A stretch of DNA of 32,000 nt from assembly GCA_965231035.1 (NCBI GenBank), contig OZ246409.1:451101-483100 (forward strand). Reading direction: 5' to 3'. A program made the position numbers and the translations under genes. Shown here one piece after another: positions 5,195 through 31,589 of this stretch (the first letter of the stretch is position 1; each line of letters begins with the position of its first letter). The notes under the pieces are model-generated. The model saw only the letters and a program-made list of their open reading frames with translations, did no database searches and was not told the DNA's origin. This DNA is from an uncultured Muribaculaceae bacterium (GTDB lineage: Bacteria > Pseudomonadota > Alphaproteobacteria > Rs-D84).

Positions 5195-6031
5195 ATGATA
5201 AAAAAAATAGCCGTTATAACCATGGCCAGAAATGATGCATTCTTTCTTGGACGTTGGATTGAATACTATGGGCGAGAACTGGGCAAAGAAAACCTGTATG
5301 TTTTTCTGGATGGGCTTGATCAGGCTGTACCTTTGAATGCTGGGAAAACTAATATCATAAAACTTGAACATCATGATTTATCCAGACTGGATTTTGACAA
5401 ACATAAATCATCAACAATATCAAAAATAGCACATGATTTATTTTCTAAGGGGTATGATATTGTTATTGGAACAGACAGCGATGAATTTTTAATTGTTGAC
5501 CCAAAAACAAAAAAATCACTTGTACAATATTTGTCCGAACAAAAAATCAAAACACCTTTGTCTGGCTTGGGAATGGATGTTGGTCAAGATTTGAACCAAG
5601 AAGACCAATTAGATCCAGAAAAACCTTTTCTGACACAACGTGGTTTTGCATTGTTGTCTACCAGATACACAAAACCGGTTGTTATTTCAAAACCTGCACG
5701 TTGGGGACGTGGATTTCATTGTGTAAAGGGGCATAATTTCAAAATTGATAAGAATTTATATCTGTTGCATTTTGGTAGTGTGGATTATGAAATGGTTCGT
5801 GCCAAGATTGGTGGCAATCGTGATTCTAATTGGAATAAACACGTTATGCGGCGTAGTGCTGGGGCAATATTTACTATTACTAAAAAGAAAAACCGATCCG
5901 AAAAAAATATTAATCTGGCCAGAACTTTGCAAACATTTTTACGCCCCATATACGCCTGGAACAAGCCTGCTATGTTTGGGCTGAAACTAGTTACAAAAAT
6001 CCCTGAAAGATTTAAAGGAACAAAAATATGA
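5195..6031 (+). CDS. Glycosyltransferase, GT2-like (Glyco_tranf_2_4-type)
   Basis: MIKKIAVITMARNDAFFLGRWIEYYGRELGKENLYVFLDGLDQ and GTDSDEFLIV (DxDE) resemble stand-alone GT2-like enzymes. I chose ATG 5195, one nt after the upstream TAA (5191-5193), rather than the track's 5138, which overlaps the preceding gene by 56 nt. Confidence 0.55.
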   Translation: MIKKIAVITMARNDAFFLGRWIEYYGRELGKENLYVFLDGLDQAVPLNAGKTNIIKLEHHDLSRLDFDKHKSSTISKIAHDLFSKGYDIVIGTDSDEFLIVDPKTKKSLVQYLSEQKIKTPLSGLGMDVGQDLNQEDQLDPEKPFLTQRGFALLSTRYTKPVVISKPARWGRGFHCVKGHNFKIDKNLYLLHFGSVDYEMVRAKIGGNRDSNWNKHVMRRSAGAIFTITKKKNRSEKNINLARTLQTFLRPIYAWNKPAMFGLKLVTKIPERFKGTKI

Positions 6032-6930
6032 CAATAAAAACAAAAATTTTCAGATTTTTTTATTTTGTATTAAGAATGATTGTTCGTATCCCTGAATTGT
6101 TCGGGGTTAAAACCAGAATGCATGAAAATACTATTGCCAGATGGCTGGTGCCAATGTATATCAAAAAAAATTTTGTGCCTTTGATAAAGGATCTGCCAGA
6201 ACAAAAACCTGTGCGTACAAACCCCGAAACAATTTGGCAATTCTGGACACCAAACAAGGTTTTTGGAACACCAGATGTTGTCAAGGCATGCATGAATACC
6301 GTTGAAAAACATCGTGGTGAAAAAAAACATATTATTTTGAACAACGATAATTTATCAGATTTTACAGATTTGCCAGGGTTTGTGTATGATAGGTTTAAAT
6401 CTGGAGATATGTGGCCTGCACATTTTACAGATATCGTCAGATTAGAAGCTTTGCATAAAAATGGTGGAATTTGGATGGACGCAACCAATTATATGACTGC
6501 ACCAATCCCAGAATATATTGATTCATTACCATTCTTTATTTTCCATGCAATTTCCGAAGGCAGTCCATATTCATTAATCCAAAACTGTTTTATCAAAGCA
6601 GACAAAGGTGCTTTTTTATTAGATGGTTGGCTGGCTTTGATTTTGGAATATTGGAAAAAAGAAAATAAAAAAATTGATTATTTCCAGCATCAATTAATGT
6701 TCAAAGCTCTTATCCAGGGCGATGCACGTGCTGCAAAGCTGTATTCAGAAATGCCCGTTATTGATCAAAAAGAAACGCACCAGTTATCGCTTGAAAAAAT
6801 GCTGGCACCATTTGATGAAAAACGCTGGGCAGAAATTTCTGCGGGCAGTTTCTTTCAAAAGCTACGTTATCAATTCAAAGAAATTCCATCTGGGTCATAT
6901 CTGGATGTTTTAACCAAGGCTGCACTATGA
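6028..6930 (+). CDS. Capsular-polysaccharide-synthesis-type glycosyltransferase (Caps_synth / Gly_transf_sug-like), paralog 1
   Basis: 300 aa. IWQFWTPN...VKACMNTVEKH...AHFTDIVRLEALHKNGGIWMDATNYM matches the WQ(Y/F)W ... SD(I/L)xRxxLLxxxGG(I/V)WxDAT signature. ATGA overlaps at both ends. Confidence 0.55.
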   Translation: MTIKTKIFRFFYFVLRMIVRIPELFGVKTRMHENTIARWLVPMYIKKNFVPLIKDLPEQKPVRTNPETIWQFWTPNKVFGTPDVVKACMNTVEKHRGEKKHIILNNDNLSDFTDLPGFVYDRFKSGDMWPAHFTDIVRLEALHKNGGIWMDATNYMTAPIPEYIDSLPFFIFHAISEGSPYSLIQNCFIKADKGAFLLDGWLALILEYWKKENKKIDYFQHQLMFKALIQGDARAAKLYSEMPVIDQKETHQLSLEKMLAPFDEKRWAEISAGSFFQKLRYQFKEIPSGSYLDVLTKAAL

Positions 6931-7832
6931 GATTATGGCGAATTTATGTTCAAACAAAAATATCTGCTTCGGTTGCATTATTGCAATGGCCGCGTCTTTT
7001 TGGAAAATGGACCAAGAAATACATTGGGGAAAATCCCCGAGGAAAAGTTTTAGTTCGTGAATTCGAAAAAAAATTCGTCCAAAAAATAAAAGACTTCAAT
7101 TTTGAGAAAACACCTGGAAAGTCTGCCGAAATCTTGTGGCAGTTTTGGACACCAAACAAGGTGTTAGGAACCCCAGATATTATCAAAGCATGCATAAATA
7201 CTGTCGAAAAGCACAAAGGCGATTTACAACATATTTTAGTTGATATAAAAACAATCCAAAACTATGCCGAATTACCAGGGTTTATTTATGACCTGTATAA
7301 TAGTGGAAAAATGAAACCTGCACATCTTGCTGATTTACTGCGTATAGAATTGCTACATAATCATGGTGGAATTTGGTTGGATGCAACTGGATATATGACT
7401 GCGGAGGTTCCAAAAAAGATTCGTGATTTGGATTTCTTTATGTTTCATGTTATGCGTAATGGTAAACCTGTTGTGCCATATATGCAAAATTGCTTTATTC
7501 GTGCCGATAAAAATTCACCACTGTTAAATGGCTGGCGCGAATTATGTTTGGAATATTGGAAAAATAATGATTTTGCTGTTGAATATTTCGTGCATCAAAT
7601 AATGTTTTATTCGATGGTAAAGAAAGATTCTGAAATGGCAAAATTGTATGCAAAAATGCCCCTGGTCGACCAAAAAGAAACTCATCACTACGCTGGTCGT
7701 ATGTCGGCAAAGTTTGACATGAATGAATTTGAAAAAATATCCCAAACAAGTTTCTTTCAGAAATTATTCTATAAACCCGAAGGCGTGGTAACTCCAGAAA
7801 GCAATATTGTAAAGCTGGCAGAAATTATTTAA
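6927..7832 (+). CDS. Capsular-polysaccharide-synthesis-type glycosyltransferase, paralog 2 (tandem duplicate)
   Basis: 301 aa, collinear with the preceding ORF along its whole length (ILWQFWTPNKVLGTPDIIKACINTVEKH...AHLADLLRIELLHNHGGIWLDATGYM...MPLVDQKETH). Confidence 0.55.
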   Translation: MRLWRIYVQTKISASVALLQWPRLFGKWTKKYIGENPRGKVLVREFEKKFVQKIKDFNFEKTPGKSAEILWQFWTPNKVLGTPDIIKACINTVEKHKGDLQHILVDIKTIQNYAELPGFIYDLYNSGKMKPAHLADLLRIELLHNHGGIWLDATGYMTAEVPKKIRDLDFFMFHVMRNGKPVVPYMQNCFIRADKNSPLLNGWRELCLEYWKNNDFAVEYFVHQIMFYSMVKKDSEMAKLYAKMPLVDQKETHHYAGRMSAKFDMNEFEKISQTSFFQKLFYKPEGVVTPESNIVKLAEII

Positions 7833-8625
7833 AAAATTTTCCAATTATCGGTGTTTTTCTAAGTTTTCTTGTACGCCAATGCCAAATCAATCCATTTTGC
7901 TTTGCAAACTCGCGGCGAATCTTTCGTCCAACTTTGCAGCTGTCTTTCATTTTTTTGCGACGAATTGGATCGCGGCTATTCAAAATAGAATCTTCATTGA
8001 ATTTATAGTGATATAAAACCTTTGGCACAGAAACTATGCGATTAGCAATCTTTACAGCACGCAAAACAAATTTTGATTCTTCTTGCGCTATCATTTCTGA
8101 AGAGAAAAATAATTTATTTTTTAATATAAAATCTTTTTTAAACAAATAACGCCAAATATATAAATCAACCAATACATTTGACCCTTTGATTTTATCTTTC
8201 ACACTGGTAAATATTTTGGATTCTTTGTATTCAAAACTGGGTGTGTATTTGTTTTCGCTTAAGAAACCACTTGCCGACATATCAGCCTTGGCATATTCAG
8301 AGGCAGATAACATAACTTCATAAAAATCAGGATCAATTAAATCATCAGAATCCATAAAATGAATATAATCCCCATTAGCCATTTTTATTCCAACATTCCT
8401 GGCCGCACCAGCACCAGCGTTTTTTTGGCTAAAAACTATAATATTTTTATACTTTTTTTGATATTTACGCAGTATTTCAATTGAATTATCTGGACTGCCA
8501 TCTTCGATGCATATTATTTCCAAATTTTTATAAGTTTGACCAAGAATACAATCCAAAGTGCGTGCCAAATACTTTTCCACTCTATATACTGGCATTATAA
8601 CTGAAATCAGCGGTGCTTTTTTCAT
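7825..8625 (-). CDS. Family 2 glycosyltransferase
   Basis: 266 aa. LISVIMPVYRVEKYLARTLDCILGQTYKNLEIICIEDGSPDNS and HFMDSDDLIDP are the classic GT2 N-terminal fold and DxD motifs. The ATG overlaps the recA stop (TAATG). Confidence 0.85.
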   Translation of the reverse strand: MKKAPLISVIMPVYRVEKYLARTLDCILGQTYKNLEIICIEDGSPDNSIEILRKYQKKYKNIIVFSQKNAGAGAARNVGIKMANGDYIHFMDSDDLIDPDFYEVMLSASEYAKADMSASGFLSENKYTPSFEYKESKIFTSVKDKIKGSNVLVDLYIWRYLFKKDFILKNKLFFSSEMIAQEESKFVLRAVKIANRIVSVPKVLYHYKFNEDSILNSRDPIRRKKMKDSCKVGRKIRREFAKQNGLIWHWRTRKLRKTPIIGKFFK

Positions 8626-22924: not shown

Positions 22925-24559
22925 ATGTTTATAAAAAGATTTTTAGGGTTTTCTGCACTGACTTTGACACTGTTTGGTTGTGCCCAACAGGCTGGTTGGC
23001 ATTCTGAATACGGAAATTTGCCCGCACAAAAACCGTCTGAAATTCAATCAGGGTTAAGCTATGCTAACTATGGTTCTTATGATCAAACTGATAATTTTGC
23101 ACCTGTTCTTCAAACTCAGGAAAAAAAGAACATTTCTGTTCTGCTTCCTTTGTCTGGATCAAATGCAGAATTGGGTAAAAGCATAACTCATTCAATTGAA
23201 ATGGCATTTCTGCAACACCCAGATAAAAACATTTCTGTAAAATTCTTTGATGTGTCTGGGAATTACAATCAAAAACAGGCTGTTATTTCAAATGCACTTT
23301 CTTCAAACCCAGATATAATTATTGGCCCAGTATTTGCCGAAGATGCAAAAATGGTTCGCGATATGAAACCAGAAAGTTTGCCTGTTTTGTCATTTACATC
23401 TGATGTAAAAGCATTTGGAAAAGGTGTTATGACAATGGCATTGATACCTGGACAAAGTGTTGAAGCTATTGTAAAAGAAATGAATAAGGATAATATTCAA
23501 AGAACAGTTATTTTTGCACCAAAAACCGATTCTGGTGAATTTATGGCGGGTTCTGCTGTATTGGCTGCAAATATTTATGATATGCCAATTTCTGGACTTT
23601 TTTACTATGAACCAGGAAATTCTGAATCAATAAAACAGGCTGCAAAAACAGCCGCAATGTTTGATGCACGCTCTGCTGCAAATACTCGTGCACGCGAAAT
23701 ATTATCAGATATTTTGATCCAGGAAAAATTAAGCCAATCTCAGAAAACATCTATTAATGATCAGTTAGAAAAAATATCAAAATCAGATACTGTTGGCAAC
23801 GCGCCGTATGATGCCGTATTATTCCTGGGTAATGCTGATGATTCCAAAACAATTGCCTCGTTCCTGCGTTATTTTGATGTTTCGCCCCGGGATGCACATT
23901 TTTACGGAACAGCATTATGGGATACACCAGATTTGATTAATGACTTTAATATGACTGGGGCAAAGTTTGCAGGATTGCCAGCAATGTCCGAAGATTTTGC
24001 AAGATTGTATGAACAGCTGGCTGGAAACCGTCCGACACGATTGGATACTTTTGGATTTGATGCTGCGAATTTGGCACGTGGAATGCTGTATTCTGATAAA
24101 TCTGTTGCGGCATATCTTCTGGACCCCAGTGGATATAATGGCTTGGATGGATTATTCAGATTGCGTCCCAGTGGCGAAAGCGAACGTGCATTGCAAATTG
24201 TAAAATTAACAGGTGGCGGTGCGGTAAGTGTTGAAAGATCCCCGGCAAATGATTTCTTGGTACCTTTGTATAGTATCCAAGCCAAGCAGATTTCACCTGC
24301 AAATGACATCGACCTGGTTGGCAAAGGTGTTAATCCAATGGATTATATAACTATACCAGACAGCTTAAAATCCAAGTATCGTTCAAAAACATTTGGAACA
24401 AATACCAAGATTGATACACCAGTAAGCGAAACCCAGTCAGCTGAAACTGTATTACCAGAAGATGACAGTGATGAAATTATCCAATCACCAGACTTTCAAC
24501 CAGTGGCACTGGATACAGTGGACAAGAAGCTAATCGACAGCGTCCAAGTTAAGGAATAA
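22925..24559 (+). CDS. LppC/LpoA-like lipoprotein (penicillin-binding-protein activator family; type I periplasmic-binding-protein fold)
   Basis: 544 aa. Lipobox LFGC (Cys19). ISVLLPLSGSNAELGKSI...IIGPV resembles Leu/Ile/Val-binding-type PBP domains. Divergent arrangement with rsmI mirrors the E. coli rsmI(yraL)/lpoA(yraM) pair. Confidence 0.6.
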   Translation: MFIKRFLGFSALTLTLFGCAQQAGWHSEYGNLPAQKPSEIQSGLSYANYGSYDQTDNFAPVLQTQEKKNISVLLPLSGSNAELGKSITHSIEMAFLQHPDKNISVKFFDVSGNYNQKQAVISNALSSNPDIIIGPVFAEDAKMVRDMKPESLPVLSFTSDVKAFGKGVMTMALIPGQSVEAIVKEMNKDNIQRTVIFAPKTDSGEFMAGSAVLAANIYDMPISGLFYYEPGNSESIKQAAKTAAMFDARSAANTRAREILSDILIQEKLSQSQKTSINDQLEKISKSDTVGNAPYDAVLFLGNADDSKTIASFLRYFDVSPRDAHFYGTALWDTPDLINDFNMTGAKFAGLPAMSEDFARLYEQLAGNRPTRLDTFGFDAANLARGMLYSDKSVAAYLLDPSGYNGLDGLFRLRPSGESERALQIVKLTGGGAVSVERSPANDFLVPLYSIQAKQISPANDIDLVGKGVNPMDYITIPDSLKSKYRSKTFGTNTKIDTPVSETQSAETVLPEDDSDEIIQSPDFQPVALDTVDKKLIDSVQVKE

Positions 24560-24586
24560 AAAACCGCCATTCGGCGGTTTTTATTT
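24558..24586. terminator. Bidirectional Rho-independent terminator (serves the LpoA-like gene and tRNA-Tyr)
   Basis: ACCGCC-ATTC-GGCGGT hairpin (24563-24578), flanked by AAAAAA upstream and TTTTTATTTT downstream. Confidence 0.85.
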
Positions 24587-24673
24587 TGGTGGGAGTGGCT
24601 GGATTCGAACCAGCTCAGGCATAAGCCAACAGATTTACAGTCTGCCCCGGCTCTCCAACTCCGGCGCACGCCC
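24587..24673 (-). tRNA. tRNA-Tyr (anticodon GTA), class II with long variable arm, CCA encoded
   Basis: Hand fold of the reverse complement: acceptor GGGCGTG/CACTCCC, D stem CCGG/CCGG, anticodon stem-loop GCAGA-CTGTAAA-TCTGT, variable arm TGGCTTATGCCTGA, T arm GCTGG-TTCGAAT-CCAGC, then A-CCA. One C4:U69 mismatch. Confidence 0.85.
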
Positions 24674-24814
24674 AATCTTTTTTTGTAGAAAATTTGTCAG
24701 AGTGGAGCAGATATTGCGTATTGCGAAGTTTTTGTGATAGGAAGTGTATTTGACATACATGACCCGGAACAAAAACAAGCAAACGCAAAATAGATGCGCC
24801 GCTATAACAAATTT

Positions 24815-24889
24815 TGGTGCGAGTAGCGGGACTCGAACCCGCATTTCCAGCTTGGAAGGCTGGCATTCTAGCCTTTGAACTATACTCGC
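24815..24889 (-). tRNA. tRNA-Gly (anticodon TCC), CCA encoded
   Basis: Hand fold: acceptor GCGAGTA/TACTCGC, D arm GTTC-AAAGGCTA-GAAT, anticodon stem-loop CCAGC-CTTCCAA-GCTGG, T arm GCGGG-TTCGAGT-CCCGC, then A-CCA. 75 nt. Confidence 0.92.
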
Positions 24890-24940: not shown

Positions 24941-25654
24941 TTATCCGACAATACCGTTCTTGATTGTAATCGTTCTGTCAGCCATGGCTGCCAATGACAA
25001 ATCATGGGTTACAAACAACATTGCCATCTTGTTTTTACGAACCAAATCAAACAATAAATCAAATACAGCGCCTGCATGCTTTGGGTCCAAGGAACCTGTT
25101 GGTTCGTCAGCCAACAAAATATCAGGATCATTTGCCAAGGCACGTGCAACAGCTGTTCTTTGCTGTTCACCACCAGACATCTGACCTGGTAAATGGCTGG
25201 CACGATGCAAAACATTTGCAGATTTTAACAATTTTTTGGCTCTTTCAATTGCAATTGTTTCTTCCATACCATTTGCCAACATCGGCATCATAACATTTTC
25301 CAAAGCAGTAAAATCTGATAATAAATTATGACGCTGATACACAAATCCGATTTTATTTCTGCGTATCTGAGTGCGTTTTTCCTCATTCATTTTTTGGGCT
25401 GTGATACCCGAAATCAAAATACTGCCAGCATTTGGTTTATCAAGCAATCCAACGCATTGCAACAAAGTAGATTTACCACAACCCGAAGGTCCGACCAGCG
25501 CAATAATTTCACCGCGACGCAAATCAAATCCACCACCAGTTAAAATATTTAATGGTTGTCCACCTTCCATAAATGTCTTTTTAATATCACGGACACTTAA
25601 TACAACATCACCCTTGCCCGCAACCTTGGATAAAGATTTTAATATATTTGCCAT
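24941..25654 (-). CDS. lolD: Lipoprotein-releasing system ATP-binding protein LolD
   Basis: 237 aa. Walker A GPSGCGKSTLL, ABC signature LSGGEQQRTAVARAL, Walker B ILLADEPTGSLD. Sits directly after a LolC/E-type permease gene. Confidence 0.85.
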   Translation of the reverse strand: MANILKSLSKVAGKGDVVLSVRDIKKTFMEGGQPLNILTGGGFDLRRGEIIALVGPSGCGKSTLLQCVGLLDKPNAGSILISGITAQKMNEEKRTQIRRNKIGFVYQRHNLLSDFTALENVMMPMLANGMEETIAIERAKKLLKSANVLHRASHLPGQMSGGEQQRTAVARALANDPDILLADEPTGSLDPKHAGAVFDLLFDLVRKNKMAMLFVTHDLSLAAMADRTITIKNGIVG

Positions 25655-25656
25655 TT

Positions 25657-26910
25657 TTATTCATTCCTTAAAACTTCTACTGGGTCTGTGTTTGCAGCTT
25701 TCCATGCAGGATATAATGTTGCCAAGAACGCCAATGCAATTGCAATCAATGCAATACCTATAACTGATGTAAATTCCAATTTTGATGGCAATTCTGACAA
25801 ATAATATAAATCTGCTGGAAATAAATCACGTCCTGTGGCCCATTGAAAAAAATGTCTGATTGGTTCAATATAAATAGAAACAATAATGCCCAGACCAGTC
25901 CCCAGTATTGCACCAAGCGCACCAATACTGGTGCCAGCCAAGATAAATATTTTCATCATAGAATGACGTGACACGCCAAATGTGCGCAACACGGCAATAT
26001 CTTTGGACTTATCTTTGACCAACATAACCAAAGATGACACGATGTTAAACGCTGCAACAATTACAATTAACATCAAAATTAAAAACATAACATTTGATTC
26101 TACTTGTAATGCACCTACAAAACCTTTGTTTAAATCTTTCCAATCACGAACAACAAATCCACGTGGCAGCAGGTTTGTAAGTGCTTCACGAACTGCTGTT
26201 GTCTTTTCTGGATTCCGCAGGAACAAATCGATATGAGTGACAGAATCACCAATATTCAAATACTTTTGTGCAGTTTCCAGCGGCATAAAAATATATCCAG
26301 AATCATATTCATACATTCCCATAAAGAATGAAGATTTTACAGGATAAGACATAACACGCGGCATTGTACCAAATGCAGTCGATGTTCCACCATTTGCAGA
26401 AATCAAAGAAACATTGTCACCCATTGTTACACGCAAGGAACGTCCCAATGATGAACCTATAATTAAATCTCCATCTTTTATATCATCCAGGTTTTTTCCA
26501 TAAATACGTGTACCTGTGGAGGTCTTGGATTTTAAATCAGCCATTCTGATTCCGCGAATCATCGCACCAGAATTATATCCGTTTGCGGACGCCATAACTT
26601 GACCTTCGGCAATTGGGACAACACTGACAGCATTTAAAGAAACAATTTTGTTCTGATGCATTTTATTTATCAGAAAATCATAGTCTTTGATTGCGCCATC
26701 TTGGTGATAAACAACAACATGACCATTCATTCCAATTATGCGTGATAACAATGAATCATGGAATCCAGCCATCACAGACATAACAACAATAAGTGTCGCG
26801 ACCCCCAGCATTATACCAATCAGGGATACCCATGAAATCACACTGCCAAAGCCTTTACCTTTGGATCGCATATAACGAAATGCGACTTTTTTTTCCAATT
26901 TTGAAAACAT
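25657..26910 (-). CDS. lolC: Lipoprotein-releasing system transmembrane subunit (LolC/LolE family)
   Basis: 417 aa. FRYMRSKGKGFGSVISWVSLIGIMLGVATLIVVMSVMAGF N-terminus, large periplasmic loop, and C-terminal FtsX-type domain (DIAVLRTFGVSR...LATLYPAWKAANTDPVEVLR). Confidence 0.88.
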   Translation of the reverse strand: MFSKLEKKVAFRYMRSKGKGFGSVISWVSLIGIMLGVATLIVVMSVMAGFHDSLLSRIIGMNGHVVVYHQDGAIKDYDFLINKMHQNKIVSLNAVSVVPIAEGQVMASANGYNSGAMIRGIRMADLKSKTSTGTRIYGKNLDDIKDGDLIIGSSLGRSLRVTMGDNVSLISANGGTSTAFGTMPRVMSYPVKSSFFMGMYEYDSGYIFMPLETAQKYLNIGDSVTHIDLFLRNPEKTTAVREALTNLLPRGFVVRDWKDLNKGFVGALQVESNVMFLILMLIVIVAAFNIVSSLVMLVKDKSKDIAVLRTFGVSRHSMMKIFILAGTSIGALGAILGTGLGIIVSIYIEPIRHFFQWATGRDLFPADLYYLSELPSKLEFTSVIGIALIAIALAFLATLYPAWKAANTDPVEVLRNE

Positions 26911-26922
26911 TAATACCTTCTT

Positions 26923-28257
26923 TTATTCGCTTAAATAATTTCTTAACGCATCGCCAGACAATGGTGCAGCAGGTTCGTCAGAATTTGTTGTACTTGCTAT
27001 AGATATAACGCGTGGGCTCATAAACACAACTAATTCTGCAAATGGTGATATCAATGTTTCAGGTGTTGTAACAAATGAATGTGTTGGAATACCAATAATC
27101 ACATAATTGTCACCCAATGTGCTGGGAATTTTGAAAGATGATAATTCACCGACACTAGTACGCAAAACAATTTTTGCATCAATCTTTTTTGCACCAGCAT
27201 AATTTCCATATTTTCCGGATGCTCCAATCGTTAAATCTGTTTCCAGCCTATCTTCTTTACCACACTGTCCAATATCAAATCTGGACTGCCATCCGTTTGG
27301 AATCACAAAAGTTCCCTGGGATATTAAAACCACATTACCCTGTTGTGACAAGAAGGCCTGTAATGTTTTTGTGTTAATTTCTGGGCTGACCACCAATGTT
27401 CTTCCGACTACACCTGGGATTGACATTTTTACATTCTTATCCCCAAAGGCCGGTAATATATTCATCCAAACAATTGGATTGTCTGTGCGTGGGTATACAC
27501 GGTATACGTCAATATCCCATGCAATCATATATTTTTTTGACCCTACATCAGACACTATTTTTGAAACCTCGCGTTCTGTTTGATAATTTCCTTCAAATGA
27601 AACTGTTTTGTCTTCCCAATCAACTAACAGGTTTCGCATATCTGTACCATGCATAGCATCCAACAAAGCCATAATTATATTTTCATCTTTTGGCATTTTC
27701 ATCAGCCATTTTGCATGACTGGATAAATGAATTTCGTGCGCATCATCGTCATAGGAATAATAAGCCTTACCCATTTTCGTAATCAACTCTAAAGAATCAG
27801 CCAATGATCCGGCCTGAATTGATCCTGTTATTTGTTGTGGTAAACTTTCATCTGCAATGACTGCAATATCTGTACCATCCAACAGTTTATCCAAGGTTTG
27901 TTTTATAGTCAGTTTTTTGAATTCATAATTTGATACATTAAATGCAGGCAAATCGTCACCTGTATCTAGGCGAACTATTTCAATTTTTTCTTCGGGCACA
28001 ACAGATAAAACGTTCTGGTTATTCCAATCAACTTCACAGCGCTTTGGTAATTCAATAGAAAAACGACGTGCAGTATCAGTTGTCAGAGCCGCCTTTTTTG
28101 GGAAAATAGGAACCGAGTTTTCATCAATTACCATATTTTCAGTTACGTTAACTGTTTGGTATTGTTGCTGATTTTGCTTTTGGATACACCCAGTTAAGCC
28201 AATCAAAACAAAGAATGCTAAAAACAAATTTGAAATTTTTAAATTATTTTTTTTCAT
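26923..28257 (-). CDS. Outer-membrane lipoprotein of unknown function with a degenerate secretin-like layout (tentative)
   Basis: 444 aa. Signal peptide plus lipobox LTGC (Cys24). Residues ~115-178 resemble an STN/secretin-N module. Residues ~245-418 follow the order of secretin C-domain landmarks and end in AELVVFMSPRVI. The stop lies 12 nt before the lolC ATG. Motif-level call only. Confidence 0.35.
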   Translation of the reverse strand: MKKNNLKISNLFLAFFVLIGLTGCIQKQNQQQYQTVNVTENMVIDENSVPIFPKKAALTTDTARRFSIELPKRCEVDWNNQNVLSVVPEEKIEIVRLDTGDDLPAFNVSNYEFKKLTIKQTLDKLLDGTDIAVIADESLPQQITGSIQAGSLADSLELITKMGKAYYSYDDDAHEIHLSSHAKWLMKMPKDENIIMALLDAMHGTDMRNLLVDWEDKTVSFEGNYQTEREVSKIVSDVGSKKYMIAWDIDVYRVYPRTDNPIVWMNILPAFGDKNVKMSIPGVVGRTLVVSPEINTKTLQAFLSQQGNVVLISQGTFVIPNGWQSRFDIGQCGKEDRLETDLTIGASGKYGNYAGAKKIDAKIVLRTSVGELSSFKIPSTLGDNYVIIGIPTHSFVTTPETLISPFAELVVFMSPRVISIASTTNSDEPAAPLSGDALRNYLSE

Positions 28258-28270
28258 ATTTTTTGTATCC

Positions 28271-28618
28271 TTAGATGTTCATTATTTTTTCGAATTCTTC
28301 CAAAGTCATTTCATAAATAGGTTTTTGTGTCGGTGTTGTAAGACCTTTGACCTTTTCATATTGTTGGGCAAACTTATCTATGACTGCGGAAACTTCCGGA
28401 GTTACAGACACTTCTTTTTTTAACCTGTTTCCGTATTCTGTGATAAACTCTAAAACATCGGCCGCAAAGAATCTCCCGACATAATTTTCTATTGCAATTC
28501 CACCCTTTTGAACACATATAGCCGACATAACCGTGGTCAGCTGATTATAGAAATTTGCCATCTGTATAAAATTATCAACATTATTTGCCATGTACCCTAT
28601 CCTCTCTCTTTCATGCAT
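28271..28618 (-). CDS. Hypothetical small cytoplasmic protein, first gene of the lolCD-containing operon
   Basis: ORF of 115 codons. ATG 28591 (106 aa, MANNVDNF...) has a good AGGA SD 8 nt upstream and is the likelier start. No signal peptide. Predicted mostly helical by composition. No family recognised. Confidence 0.5.
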   Translation of the reverse strand: MHERERIGYMANNVDNFIQMANFYNQLTTVMSAICVQKGGIAIENYVGRFFAADVLEFITEYGNRLKKEVSVTPEVSAVIDKFAQQYEKVKGLTTPTQKPIYEMTLEEFEKIMNI

Positions 28619-28629
28619 TATAAAAACTA

Positions 28630-28658
28630 TTGCCCTGCTTTGGCAATTAAATTATAAT
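28630..28658 (+). promoter_or_regulatory. Candidate sigma70-type promoter positioned to give a leaderless mRNA for the 126-aa lipoprotein gene
   Basis: TTGCCC (28630-28635), 17-nt spacer, consensus TATAAT (28653-28658). The ATG at 28666 begins 7 nt after the -10 hexamer, and no SD is present. Confidence 0.4.
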
Positions 28659-28665
28659 GTAATTC

Positions 28666-29046
28666 ATGAGATTTAGATACTTACCTTTATTACTTATTTT
28701 GGCCGCTTGTGCATCTGCAAATACTGGAAGTATTGATGACGCAACTGTACTGAATTGGGAAAACGAAGCTGTAACCATTGAACAATTTATTCGCGACCAT
28801 AAAAATTGTCTGGGTGTAACTGCATCCGCTCACCAACCTCGCAGCAGAATCGCTAAGCTTTTGGCACCAAATCAGAGCGGACAAATGCCAGATTGGGACG
28901 GTTTATGGGTAACATTCCAGTCAAATGAATATTCTGATGTTGGCCAAAGGGTTTTGATGTCAATTCCTCCTAATTCCAGTTCTAAATCCGTTGGTTCATA
29001 CCGTAAATGTATGTTCAGACGCGGATATTTATTGCGCGCTAGTTAA
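28666..29046 (+). CDS. Small lipoprotein of unknown function
   Basis: 126 aa. Signal peptide MRFRYLPLLLILAAC with lipobox LAAC (Cys15), plus two further Cys (C48, C115). No family recognised. Confidence 0.55.
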   Translation: MRFRYLPLLLILAACASANTGSIDDATVLNWENEAVTIEQFIRDHKNCLGVTASAHQPRSRIAKLLAPNQSGQMPDWDGLWVTFQSNEYSDVGQRVLMSIPPNSSSKSVGSYRKCMFRRGYLLRAS

Positions 29047-29816: not shown

Positions 29817-31589
29817 ATGAATTTGTTTGATTCATCTTTTTTGTGTCTTGATATTGGCAGCAACACTGTTCGCGGCATTGCACATCGAATACGCTCTGGA
29901 AAAATAACCAAATCTGCAATTCACAGTGTCGAAAGCGATGATACAGTCTTTGCAATCAAAACTGTTATTGATGAAATGGAACGTCAATTAGGCGTACGTT
30001 TTGATTCTGCTTATATAACTGGAAATTTTGGAAACTCTAATTTTGAGATGATTGCAAAAAGTACCGTATGGAATGGTGATCATAAAATTACAGAATCAGA
30101 TGTAAGATATCAAATAAGTCAAATTACCCCAAATGCAGAATTTTATCCAATGCACATTGTACCGCTACGTTATGATACTTCGCATGCCAGAAATTTATTA
30201 ACCCCTATTGGACATACAGACAAACAATTAATTTCTATTTTTGGGGTAGTAAGTTATGAAAATGAAAGACTGAACACAATATTATCCCAGCTTCGCAGTG
30301 CACATATCCAAGTCGAAAATATGTTTGATCCATCTTTTATATTGGATACTGCATTGCGCGATTCAAAACAATCTGTTTTGTTTATGGATATGGGCGCAGA
30401 ATTCACCAGTATTTCAATCTGGACTGGACGTGGACCGGTATTTTTCGAAAAGATTCCCAAGGGTCAGGATTTTATAACAAAAACAATTGCCAGTGAATTA
30501 AATATAAAGATAAAAGATGCCGTTAAAATCAAACACCAGGTTGCCAGCGTAATTGCTAGTGAAATGGACAGATTTACCCCTGCTGATACTTTGTATGATT
30601 TTTCGCGTGCTGATTTGAATGAAATAATACTTCCGACATTATCAGATATTGTTGAAACAGTCAGCGAATCTTTGGAAACAGCTATTTCAAAATATAACCC
30701 TTGTAAAATATTCCTTTCTGGCGGTGGTGCATGTATCCAAGGAATCGAAGAAATGGTCACAGATACATTTGGAATAGAAACACAAAATATTGGATCAGAT
30801 GCGGTTATACGTGCACTTTCGGATTATGTTTGGAAACAAGAATCTGGACATGTAAAAGCTTTCTTGGACCGACATGAAAAATGGCAGAACACTTTTGCAA
30901 AGGTATTAAATAAATTCAAAAAGAATAAAAACAAAGGAACCAGATTTATTCCAATAATGCCCAGCACATTGGCGTTTGATATGAAAAGCAAAGAAACTTA
31001 TGAACTTTTCAAATCTGGCGGAATTTCAATGATTCATGTTGATATTATGGATGGTTTTTTTGTGGATCGTATTGCCGGTGGAATTGAAGAATTGAAAACC
31101 ATACGTGAAAACACTCACTCTCATCTGCATGTTCATTTGATGACGGAAAGCCCTGCTGCTTGGGCGGCTGCGGCTGCAAATGCAGGTGCAGATACAATAA
31201 TTGTATCAACAAATACTGCGGGTGTTCGTGCTGCACTTCGTCAAATAAAAGAAATGGGCAAAAGATCTGGAATTGCACTAAATCCGGAAAGTCCTGTTGA
31301 AATATTAAAACCAATATTAAAAGAAATTGATGAAGTTTTGATAATGTCTGTCAGACCTGGTGCAGGCGGACAAGAATTTAATGAAAATATTCTAAGAAAA
31401 ATCTCTGTTTTGGCAAACACCAGAAAACGGTTTGGATTAAAATTCAAAATATCCGTAGACGGTGGAATTACACCTGGTGCAGCTGAATTTTGCTGGCGCG
31501 CTGGTGCAGACTTTTTGGTCAGTGGAACATACCTATCTGAAAGTCATGATTTCCCGTTGGCAGTACAAAGTCTTTTACACAAAGAATAA
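29817..31589 (+). CDS. FtsA fused in frame to ribulose-phosphate 3-epimerase (Rpe)
   Basis: 590 aa uninterrupted. Residues 1-~345 are FtsA-like (FLCLDIGSNTVRGIA; LFMDMGAEFTSISIW...IPKGQDFITKTIA; KIFLSGGGACIQGIEEM). Residues ~352-367 form an amphipathic segment, KWQNTFAKVLNKFKK. Residues ~378-590 are Rpe (MIHVDIMDG, HVHLM, MSVRPGAGGQ, SVDGGI). Confidence 0.8.
   Translation: MNLFDSSFLCLDIGSNTVRGIAHRIRSGKITKSAIHSVESDDTVFAIKTVIDEMERQLGVRFDSAYITGNFGNSNFEMIAKSTVWNGDHKITESDVRYQISQITPNAEFYPMHIVPLRYDTSHARNLLTPIGHTDKQLISIFGVVSYENERLNTILSQLRSAHIQVENMFDPSFILDTALRDSKQSVLFMDMGAEFTSISIWTGRGPVFFEKIPKGQDFITKTIASELNIKIKDAVKIKHQVASVIASEMDRFTPADTLYDFSRADLNEIILPTLSDIVETVSESLETAISKYNPCKIFLSGGGACIQGIEEMVTDTFGIETQNIGSDAVIRALSDYVWKQESGHVKAFLDRHEKWQNTFAKVLNKFKKNKNKGTRFIPIMPSTLAFDMKSKETYELFKSGGISMIHVDIMDGFFVDRIAGGIEELKTIRENTHSHLHVHLMTESPAAWAAAAANAGADTIIVSTNTAGVRAALRQIKEMGKRSGIALNPESPVEILKPILKEIDEVLIMSVRPGAGGQEFNENILRKISVLANTRKRFGLKFKISVDGGITPGAAEFCWRAGADFLVSGTYLSESHDFPLAVQSLLHKE

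Follow-up and report, generated by a model that had tools for sequence, protein, structure and literature searches.

Organization of the orf115–orf444–lolC–lolD locus

The DNA analyzed here is a 32,000-nucleotide stretch of contig OZ246409.1 (positions 451,101–483,100; assembly GCA_965231035.1; hereafter, the window) from an uncultured alphaproteobacterium of the GTDB order Rs-D84. The window is AT-rich (~36% GC) and belongs to the core chromosome. It contains four minus-strand genes, orf115, orf444, lolC and lolD, which are arranged head to tail, as a check of the open reading frames (ORFs) confirmed against the coordinates of a preliminary description. The 444-amino-acid (aa) product of orf444 is a lipoprotein of the secretin superfamily that is reduced in size and located in a new genomic setting; the feature is real, conserved and previously unannotated. 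A fifth gene, lipo126, diverges from the block. It was overlooked in the preliminary description but belongs to the same conserved unit and uses the same promoter region.

28271–28618, minus strand: orf115 ORF as first called
28271–28591, minus strand: orf115, corrected 106-aa form starting at M10 (from homologue starts)
26923–28257, minus strand: orf444, divergent, shortened lipoprotein secretin (family S; from profiles, AlphaFold2 and Foldseek)
25657–26910, minus strand: lolC, single LolC/E/F-type permease with MacB_PCD and FtsX domains (from TIGR02212 and Pfam)
24941–25654, minus strand: lolD, ATP-binding cassette (ABC) ATPase (TIGR02211 as best match; Pfam ABC_tran)
28666–29046, plus strand: lipo126, 126-aa lipoprotein (lipobox LAA-C15), divergent from the shared promoter
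28617–28658, unstranded: bidirectional promoter (from a promoter scan and conservation across loci)

The intergenic gaps are 13 nt between orf115 and orf444, 12 nt between orf444 and lolC and 2 nt between lolC and lolD. The AAGGA motif reported for the first gap is present in GGATACAAAAAAT, where it includes the final two nucleotides of the stop codon, and the GAAGG motif reported for the second gap is present in AAGAAGGTATTA. The permease scores above the cutoff of the NCBIfam lolCE equivalog (TIGR02212; 415 versus 362 bits), and the ATPase finds its best NCBIfam match in LolD (TIGR02211) at 243 bits, below the cutoff of 308 bits. The pair has the make-up of a LolCDE/LolFD-type transporter, with a MacB periplasmic core and an FtsX permease adjoining a LolD-type ATPase. 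The presence of one permease gene at the locus is consistent with a LolF-type homodimer, a concept cited in PMC9963962. Hereafter, S denotes the orf444-type secretin family, and B denotes the protein encoded directly upstream of S.

orf444 is a diverged and shortened lipoprotein secretin

No significant match to orf444 was found in Pfam, NCBIfam or the PDB sequences, and only a sub-threshold match to the Pfam STN domain (0.064) was obtained. The more than 1224 close homologues are all annotated as hypothetical and derive from metagenome-assembled genomes labeled 'Candidatus Enterousia', Alphaproteobacteria or 'Rickettsiales' from animal, human and termite guts. A profile built from 30 close homologues retrieved 147 clusters from a 50%-identity library of 1.8 billion representatives. 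Some of these clusters contain full-length proteins of ~380–470 aa with identities down to 22%, most of which have a lipobox and two invariant cysteines. The weakest matches (E-values of 1e-12 to 1e-4) are longer proteins that carry the Pfam Secretin and STN domains, one of them fused to TcpQ, and whose highest scores are with secretin models of the MshL and PilN types. In a profile–profile comparison with hhalign, the orf444 family aligns with canonical lipoprotein secretins over residues 73–423 (347 columns) with a probability of 99.9% and an E-value of 3.9e-37. Relative to these canonical proteins, the secretin domain of orf444 is shortened by ~21, ~21, ~12 and ~8 residues, and it is because of these ~60 internally deleted residues that no Pfam Secretin match is obtained.

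An AlphaFold2 model of orf444 calculated with remote homologues in the alignment has a predicted local distance difference test (pLDDT) score of 89.3 and a predicted TM (pTM) score of 0.77. A confident model required the remote homologues, as the 30 close homologues alone gave a pLDDT of 45.6. When the model was compared with the PDB by Foldseek, the top 26 matches were all secretins, with BfpB as the best match (E-value of 8e-10), and separate matches were obtained to the N0-N1 domains of EscC, MxiD, GspD and XcpQ. HMMER profiles, hhalign, the AlphaFold2 model and Foldseek thus agree with the earlier description of the 444-aa lipoprotein as secretin-like. orf444 belongs to the secretin superfamily, within which it is a lipidated, shortened and highly divergent protein. 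The polypeptide is organized as follows.

28186–28257, minus strand: signal peptide and lipobox LTG-C24, aa 1–24 (read from the sequence)
28009–28185, minus strand: tether linking the anchor to N0, aa 25–83 (from alignments; pLDDT 53–85)
27697–28008, minus strand: N0 (STN-like) domain, aa 84–187 (weak STN match, pLDDT >95, Foldseek)
27340–27684, minus strand: two small alpha/beta domains of the ring-building type, aa 192–306 (AlphaFold2 secondary structure, hhalign)
26995–27339, minus strand: reduced secretin beta-domain, aa 307–421, ending in ELVVFMSPRVI (hhalign; seven strands in the model)

The lipidation site C24 is invariant in the 30 homologues, and most of the remote homologues also have a lipobox. 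In the tether, residues 43–74 are essentially invariant, with 25 positions strictly conserved and the others conserved at a level of at least 90%. The C74 residue at the end of this segment is invariant throughout the family, and C332 in the beta-domain is nearly so. The N0 assignment is corroborated by a homologue (P0243) with a Pfam STN score of 2.9e-4. Of the hallmarks of the superfamily, the N0 and ring-building domains are present, and the PF00263-type beta-domain is recognized through remote homology, with internal deletions.

Beyond the beta-domain, residues 422–444 (26923–26994) form a C-terminal tail of Rs-D84 with a conserved helix (PL.GD.LR.FL.E). This tail is not found in most remote homologues, and a similar GD.L tail occurs in a few T2-like proteins (context types are defined below). 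The tail might bind a pilotin or accessory protein in the manner of an S domain; lipo126 is equally clade-specific. A phage origin of orf444 was also considered and set aside: a viral fold library gave one match without a name and the f1 pIV protein, which is no evidence for such an origin, and the locus is a syntenic part of the core chromosome without phage genes.

Conservation and genomic context of the S family

Rs-D84 genomes measure ~0.75–1.0 Mb with fewer than ~900 genes and a coding density of ~90%, and an obligate symbiotic or parasitic lifestyle, in which the bacteria live off partner cells, has been proposed for the order (PMC12306168). The S loci fall into three context types, namely T1 (Rs-D84 loci; 80 species-representative loci and ~24 metagenome loci), T2 (nearer sister clades; 9 distinct loci) and T3 (remote relatives; 9 distinct loci).

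In T1, lipo126 and ftsQ point away from the oppositely oriented orf115–S–lolC–lolD genes, whose order is retained in 80 of 80 species loci. The preliminary description had placed the two extra genes in one operon with lolCD, and within Rs-D84 they are indeed conserved together with lolCD. The gap between S and lolC is 2–34 nt in 76 of the 80 species, and the four remaining species contain co-oriented insertions of 0.5–2.4 kb between the two genes. The median identities over the T1 species loci are as follows.

orf444: 74%
lipo126: 76%
orf115: 67%
LolC: 80% (78 loci)
LolD: 79%
FtsQ: 52%
FtsA: 58%

The ratio of nonsynonymous to synonymous substitution rates (dN/dS), estimated with dS near saturation, is ~0.06 for orf444, 0.09–0.10 for orf115, ~0.05 for lipo126 and ~0.07 for lolC. 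Given these low ratios and high identities, orf115 and orf444 are strongly constrained and therefore are not the decaying, lineage-specific ORFs that the preliminary description had raised as a possible objection.

In the T2 loci, S is 34–48% identical, the gene order is double-HTH (a regulator with two helix-turn-helix domains), A, B, S, lolC and lolD, many stop codons overlap the next start codon, and both flanks are wholly different. In T3, S is 22–27% identical; large polytopic paralogues, one to three in number, come first and are followed by double-HTH, A, B, S and D1. No lolCD genes were found near the secretin gene in the nine distinct T3 loci, where D1 follows S instead. Only in T1 and T2 is S linked to lolCD. 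The membrane protein D1 is bitopic; its cytoplasmic part is rich in proline, and its periplasmic domain of 95 aa has two cysteines. No relative of D1 was found in the PDB by sequence. A search of the window and of the 80 Rs-D84 loci for the double-HTH protein, A, D1 and the VirB6-like genes found none.

Several further features accompany these clusters. In ~14 of the 80 Rs-D84 species, an extra co-oriented gene of 204–256 aa lies between lolC and lolD, and its start overlaps the lolC stop (L027, 8556–9212; L033, 8570–9184; L043, 8612–9361; L056, 8624–9307; L022, 3885–4655; L104, 10581–11222). Its product begins with MNKK...SSA...RGIKLP...Y.YKLPGG and has no Pfam match. The T3 polytopic paralogues (416–895 aa) lie directly upstream of the HTH–A–B–secretin–D1 cluster (L083, 2–5069; L089, 2–5160; L124, 135–3841; L126, 420–3107; L090, 1–612); they match TrbL/VirB6 below threshold, and the array recalls the multiple VirB6 genes of Rickettsiales. 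In one T2 lineage (L088, 2590–4247), the region just upstream of the HTH–A–B–secretin–lolCD cluster encodes a lipoprotein of 56 aa, a protein with a VirB8 domain (30 bits, exceeding the Pfam cutoff) and another membrane-anchored protein. The C-terminal domain of A is paralogous to the N-terminal domain of B and shares the motif YLPxFGxxGxxLLEKLK (L081, 5245–8004; L085, 5387–7988; and equivalents). The upstream regulator of ~330 aa contains two HTH_3 domains with a weak likeness to the phage RstR and Wolbachia Wmk models.

orf115 corresponds to the C-terminal domain of B

The −10 box of the orf115 promoter overlaps the ATG at 28618, and the orf115 homologues (105–108 aa) start at the M10 residue of the window's ORF. 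The real orf115 start is therefore at 28591, giving a protein of 106 residues. As stated in the preliminary description, orf115 has no signal peptide; it also lacks a transmembrane segment and is soluble and helical. A total of 918 homologues were found, and no significant match was obtained in Pfam, NCBIfam or the PDB sequences.

Directly before the secretin gene, the remote relatives have a gene for B, an acidic cytoplasmic protein of 139–700 aa. orf115 and the B family align in hhalign with a probability of 97.8% and an E-value of 1.2e-12, and a jackhmmer search seeded with B recovers the orf115 ORF of the Rs-D84 loci. By these profile comparisons, orf115 is a trimmed orthologue of the C-terminal domain of B. 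B is located immediately upstream of S in every T1, T2 and T3 locus for which the upstream flank is present. The B–S pair constitutes the invariant core of the locus, an ancient gene pair that is never split in the gut-associated, genome-reduced Alphaproteobacteria (Rs-D84/Enterousia and relatives).

A conserved bidirectional promoter and the proposed transcription unit

The top promoter-like site of the region lies upstream of orf115 at 28646–28617 (TTGCCA-18-TATAAT; 11 of 12 consensus positions), in agreement with the preliminary description, which had located the only good promoter-like region there, and it is kept across loci. In the promoter scan at 28617–28658, the minus strand scored 11/12 and the plus strand 10/12. 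The 42-bp core between lipo126 and orf115, ATTATAAT-TTAA-TTGC-N9-GCAA-TAGTTTT-TATAAT, comprises a pair of promoters in mirror image; each has a TATAAT of its own, and their back-to-back −35 boxes make the palindrome TTGCC-N7-GGCAA. The core is nearly invariant in 101 of 106 Rs-D84-type loci (95 distinct sequences), and its flanks vary. Over ~100 species-level loci (L001–L080 and L099–L123), the central 7 bp of the palindrome vary freely and the core stays nearly constant, although synonymous sites in the genes on either side have reached saturation. The window contains a single copy of the palindrome, and the T2 and T3 loci have none. A role of the palindrome as a transcription factor operator was set aside, as the two back-to-back −35 boxes account for it fully; a further regulator is possible.

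No conserved internal promoter precedes lolC: in the 1.3 kb scanned, at most 4 of 76 species share a sigma70-like match in any 30-nt bin, with non-sigma70 or weak promoters being invisible to such consensus scans. A promoter-like site inside orf444 (27702–27674; 10/12) was dismissed, as it is not conserved across loci. The claim that the block has no hairpin terminator holds for strong terminators; two weak hairpins with three GC pairs and poor T tails do exist, in a number that does not exceed the expectation from shuffled sequences. The first strong terminator (24582–24559) is located only after the two tRNA genes downstream of lolD.

24559–24889, minus strand: tRNA-Gly (24815–24889), tRNA-Tyr (24587–24673) and strong terminator (24559–24582) (from ARAGORN and a promoter/terminator scan)

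Over ~100 related loci, the conserved upstream promoter and the lack of a conserved internal one support the proposed single four-gene transcription unit. One sigma70-type promoter upstream of orf115 would transcribe orf115, orf444, lolC and lolD leftward, possibly continuing into the two tRNA genes, and its mirror-image partner would drive lipo126 rightward. The terminator at 24559–24582 is a possible 3′ end of the unit. The tRNA genes, tRNA-Gly(UCC) and tRNA-Tyr(GUA), follow lolD with no terminator in between, and a separate promoter-like site (24936–24909; 10/12) lies just past the lolD stop. The terminator hairpin is bidirectional and is shared with a convergent lppC/LpoA-like lipoprotein gene (22925–24559).

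The divergently encoded lipo126 contains two invariant cysteines in addition to the LAA-C15 lipobox. It adjoins the unit in 80 of 80 T1 loci, even where ftsQA is rearranged, and is clade-specific to Rs-D84, being absent from the T2 and T3 loci. No significant match to lipo126 was found in Pfam, NCBIfam or the PDB sequences. Its identity as the Rs-D84 counterpart of D1 was ruled out by an hhalign probability of 0.2%. lipo126 is a candidate accessory protein of the secretin, similar to a pilotin or BfpG.

Comparison of orf444 with known systems

orf444 most closely resembles the lipoprotein secretins of type IVb pili, BfpB, TcpC and PilN (TIGR02520; 9u5s), which have an N-terminal lipobox and a long tether before N0. 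In the LG-N0-N3-secretin plan of BfpB (PMC12531336), the LG domain is positionally equivalent to the 60-residue tether of orf444. Both have few ring domains after N0 in place of a full N1-N2-N3 series, end the secretin domain with ...ELV..L.PR.I and need no S-domain pilotin. In contrast to the BfpB type, orf444 has only ~10% identity, does not match TIGR02520 or Pfam Secretin (NCBIfam E-values up to 1), lacks ~60 residues in the secretin domain and carries the family-wide C74 and C332 pair. In addition, its neighbors are B, lolCD and lipo126 rather than pil, bfp or tcp genes.

HxcQ, the liposecretin of a Pseudomonas aeruginosa type II secretion system (T2SS), is likewise lipidated and expected to take a direct Lol route (PMC3230066, citing Viarre et al. 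2009). HxcQ is a full-length GspD-type protein from a complete hxc T2SS cluster, whereas orf444 belongs to a lolCD operon where no T2SS genes are seen. With the filamentous phage protein pIV, orf444 shares a size of ~400–430 aa, a minimal plan of N0, one ring domain and a secretin domain, and fold matches (7ofh, f1 IV). pIV is phage-borne and not lipidated, unlike orf444, whose locus is syntenic in all species.

Two transport systems resemble the locus in gene content. As with LolB and LolA, a predicted outer-membrane lipoprotein is encoded with Lol genes, but orf444 has a secretin fold and not the unclosed beta-barrel with a lid, and remote family members lack the lolCD linkage. As in MacAB-TolC and other MacB-type (type VII ABC) systems, a MacB-fold permease and an ATPase are encoded with an outer-membrane channel-type protein. 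The locus differs from these systems in that no membrane-fusion (adaptor) protein is encoded, the channel-type protein is a secretin homologue rather than TolC, and the permease scores as a genuine LolC/E.

Putative role of orf444 in an envelope system

On balance, orf444 is probably a Lol-dependent, self-piloting pore of an unrecognized envelope system and not a component of the Lol pathway, with its link to lolCD being secondary. orf444 would be exported by Sec, lipidated and then extracted from the inner membrane by the LolC2D2 transporter encoded downstream. As a 'self-piloting liposecretin', it would reach the outer membrane without a pilotin, a route that lipidated secretins are known or thought to take through Lol (PMC3230066, citing Viarre 2009; PMC12531336). 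There it would form a multimeric ring or pore and serve a system, unrecognized by any profile, whose parts in relatives would comprise the double-HTH regulator, A, B and the inner-membrane D1 and to which lipo126 may contribute an extra part in Rs-D84. The lolCD link is regarded as secondary because B–S exists without lolCD in T3, and the genes inserted between S and lolC in 4 of the 80 species further support this view. Among the three roles offered in the preliminary description, the best fit is that of a part of a new envelope system borrowing the operon. The role of an outer-membrane component of the Lol pathway is unsupported, and that of a dedicated cargo is probably true but trivial, as any lipidated secretin is a Lol substrate.

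Several observations weigh against the assignment of orf444 as such a pore. The ~52 kb around the locus contain housekeeping genes only, with no gene for a pilin, a GspE/PilB-type ATPase, a platform protein or another secretin partner, and the known secretin partners are also missing from more than 120 related loci; T2SS, type III secretion system, type IV pilus and filamentous phage assembly genes are absent from both sets. The S–lolCD adjacency holds at S identities of 34–48% with both flanks changed, which would fit a direct functional link. The Foldseek TM-scores are low (0.15–0.26), as expected for a monomer compared with ring protomers, and do not prove the fold. With ~60 residues gone from the secretin domain, pore formation is not assured, and a cytoplasmic partner (orf115/B) for an outer-membrane protein is without clear precedent. 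Co-transcription, multimerization of orf444 and its outer-membrane location are all predictions.

Alphaproteobacteria lack a recognizable LolB, and the preliminary description had suggested orf444 as a candidate for the missing part of the pathway. This suggestion is not supported, as orf444 has a secretin fold rather than the LolA/LolB fold and B–S is followed by D1 instead of lolCD in T3. Against a LolB-like acceptor, the fold search returned secretins only, no Pfam or NCBIfam LolA/LolB match was found and lolCD does not consistently co-occur across the family (T3). The finding does not reopen the LolB question, to which the bifunctional LolA of Caulobacter is the published answer (PMC9963962).

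A closer relation to the transporter would exist if the secretin worked directly with LolCD, its tether and N0 domain docking on the periplasmic domain of LolC to form a trans-envelope conduit that delivers or surface-exposes lipoproteins or that acts as the outer-membrane acceptor in organisms lacking LolB. The S–lolC–lolD adjacency in 80 of 80 Rs-D84 loci and in 9 distinct T2 loci despite flank changes, the conservation of S at the level of LolC and LolD, and the invariant 32-residue tether segment, which suggests a conserved binding partner, all favor such coupling, as does the position of D1 in the T3 slot after S, where LolC could be a functional replacement for this bitopic protein with a periplasmic domain. 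Direct coupling is nevertheless quite improbable: the B–S module occurs without lolCD in T3, S and lolC, like lolC and lolD, can be separated by unrelated genes, the fold is that of a secretin, and no secretin is known to partner with a MacB-type transporter. The bifunctional LolA already explains the missing LolB (PMC9963962). Equally hard to credit is a more elaborate proposal that joins the secretin homologue and LolC2D2 into a single trans-envelope machine. In it, a MacB-type ABC motor would be coupled via its periplasmic domain to the tether/N0 ring of a gate-reduced secretin, and lipoproteins, or a different cargo that is lipidated or periplasmic, would be moved as far as the outer membrane or through it; lipo126 would be an accessory and orf115 a cytoplasmic coupling or chaperone factor. 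If true, this machine would be a new kind of secretion or lipoprotein export system in host-dependent Alphaproteobacteria.

Two explanations make less of the neighboring lolCD genes. A classical machine with its other genes elsewhere in the genome could simply use orf444, in spite of its great divergence, as its outer-membrane secretin or ring. The candidates are a T2SS, a pilus of type IVb or for competence/DNA uptake, and a Rickettsiales-type type IV secretion system (T4SS), of which orf444 would form an accessory ring. The nearest structure, the type IVb pilus secretin BfpB, and the nearest sequences, MshL/PilN-like lipoprotein secretins, point in this direction, as do the T3 loci directly downstream of VirB6/TrbL-like arrays and the T2 locus near VirB8. 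The ~52 kb around the locus contain no gene of a pilus, T2SS or T4SS, the VirB6 matches are below the Pfam threshold, the use of secretins is not known from T4SSs, and the conserved partners B, A, double-HTH and D1 match no known pilus or T2SS component. DNA uptake might be useful to Rs-D84 bacteria, which lack nucleotide biosynthesis, but in the analysis of their genomes flagella were absent and type IV pili were reported only for another lineage (PMC12306168). A classical machine is thus unlikely, though less so than direct coupling to LolCD. The tight packing could also be mere compaction of a genome of <1 Mb, with lolCD transcribed from its own unrecognized promoter and unrelated to the two upstream genes. 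The ~90% coding density (PMC12306168), the S–lolC insertions, the T3 relatives without the lolCD link and the blindness of consensus scans to some promoters are in line with this explanation. It is given little credence, as the adjacency outlasts deep divergence while the flanks are reshuffled, stop and start codons overlap in T2, no terminator separates the genes, and the near-invariant promoter-like site upstream of orf115 has no conserved counterpart in the 1.3 kb before lolC.

With orf444 as the pore of an envelope system, the locus offers a handle on that system (B, S, lipo126/D1, A and double-HTH), whose secretin family is hidden from Pfam and NCBIfam and annotated as hypothetical throughout. 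In a genome of fewer than ~900 genes, the conservation of this secretin homologue is on a par with that of LolC and LolD, and its gene lies in their operon behind a near-invariant promoter. S is therefore likely to be central to building or using the envelope, for example in uptake from or attachment to a partner, in bacteria (Rs-D84/Enterousia) that are widespread in animal and human guts. S also exemplifies a minimal, internally deleted secretin and would show a liposecretin that is naturally expressed together with the machinery that sorts it.

Other genes near the locus

In the window, a single 590-aa ORF (29817–31589, plus strand) encodes a fusion of FtsA and ribulose-phosphate 3-epimerase with a complete epimerase domain (Pfam FtsA, aa 190–322; Ribul_P_3_epim, aa 380–573). 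The full-length fusion was seen in 66 related species loci. To the right of the window (L091), a gene for an AsmA-like 827-aa protein with a faint Pfam match (5469–7952) and a gene for a PagL lipid A deacylase (2160–2747) are both less than 10 kb from the locus. With these two genes and lolCD, lppC, ftsQA and MltA, this part of the chromosome is rich in envelope genes.

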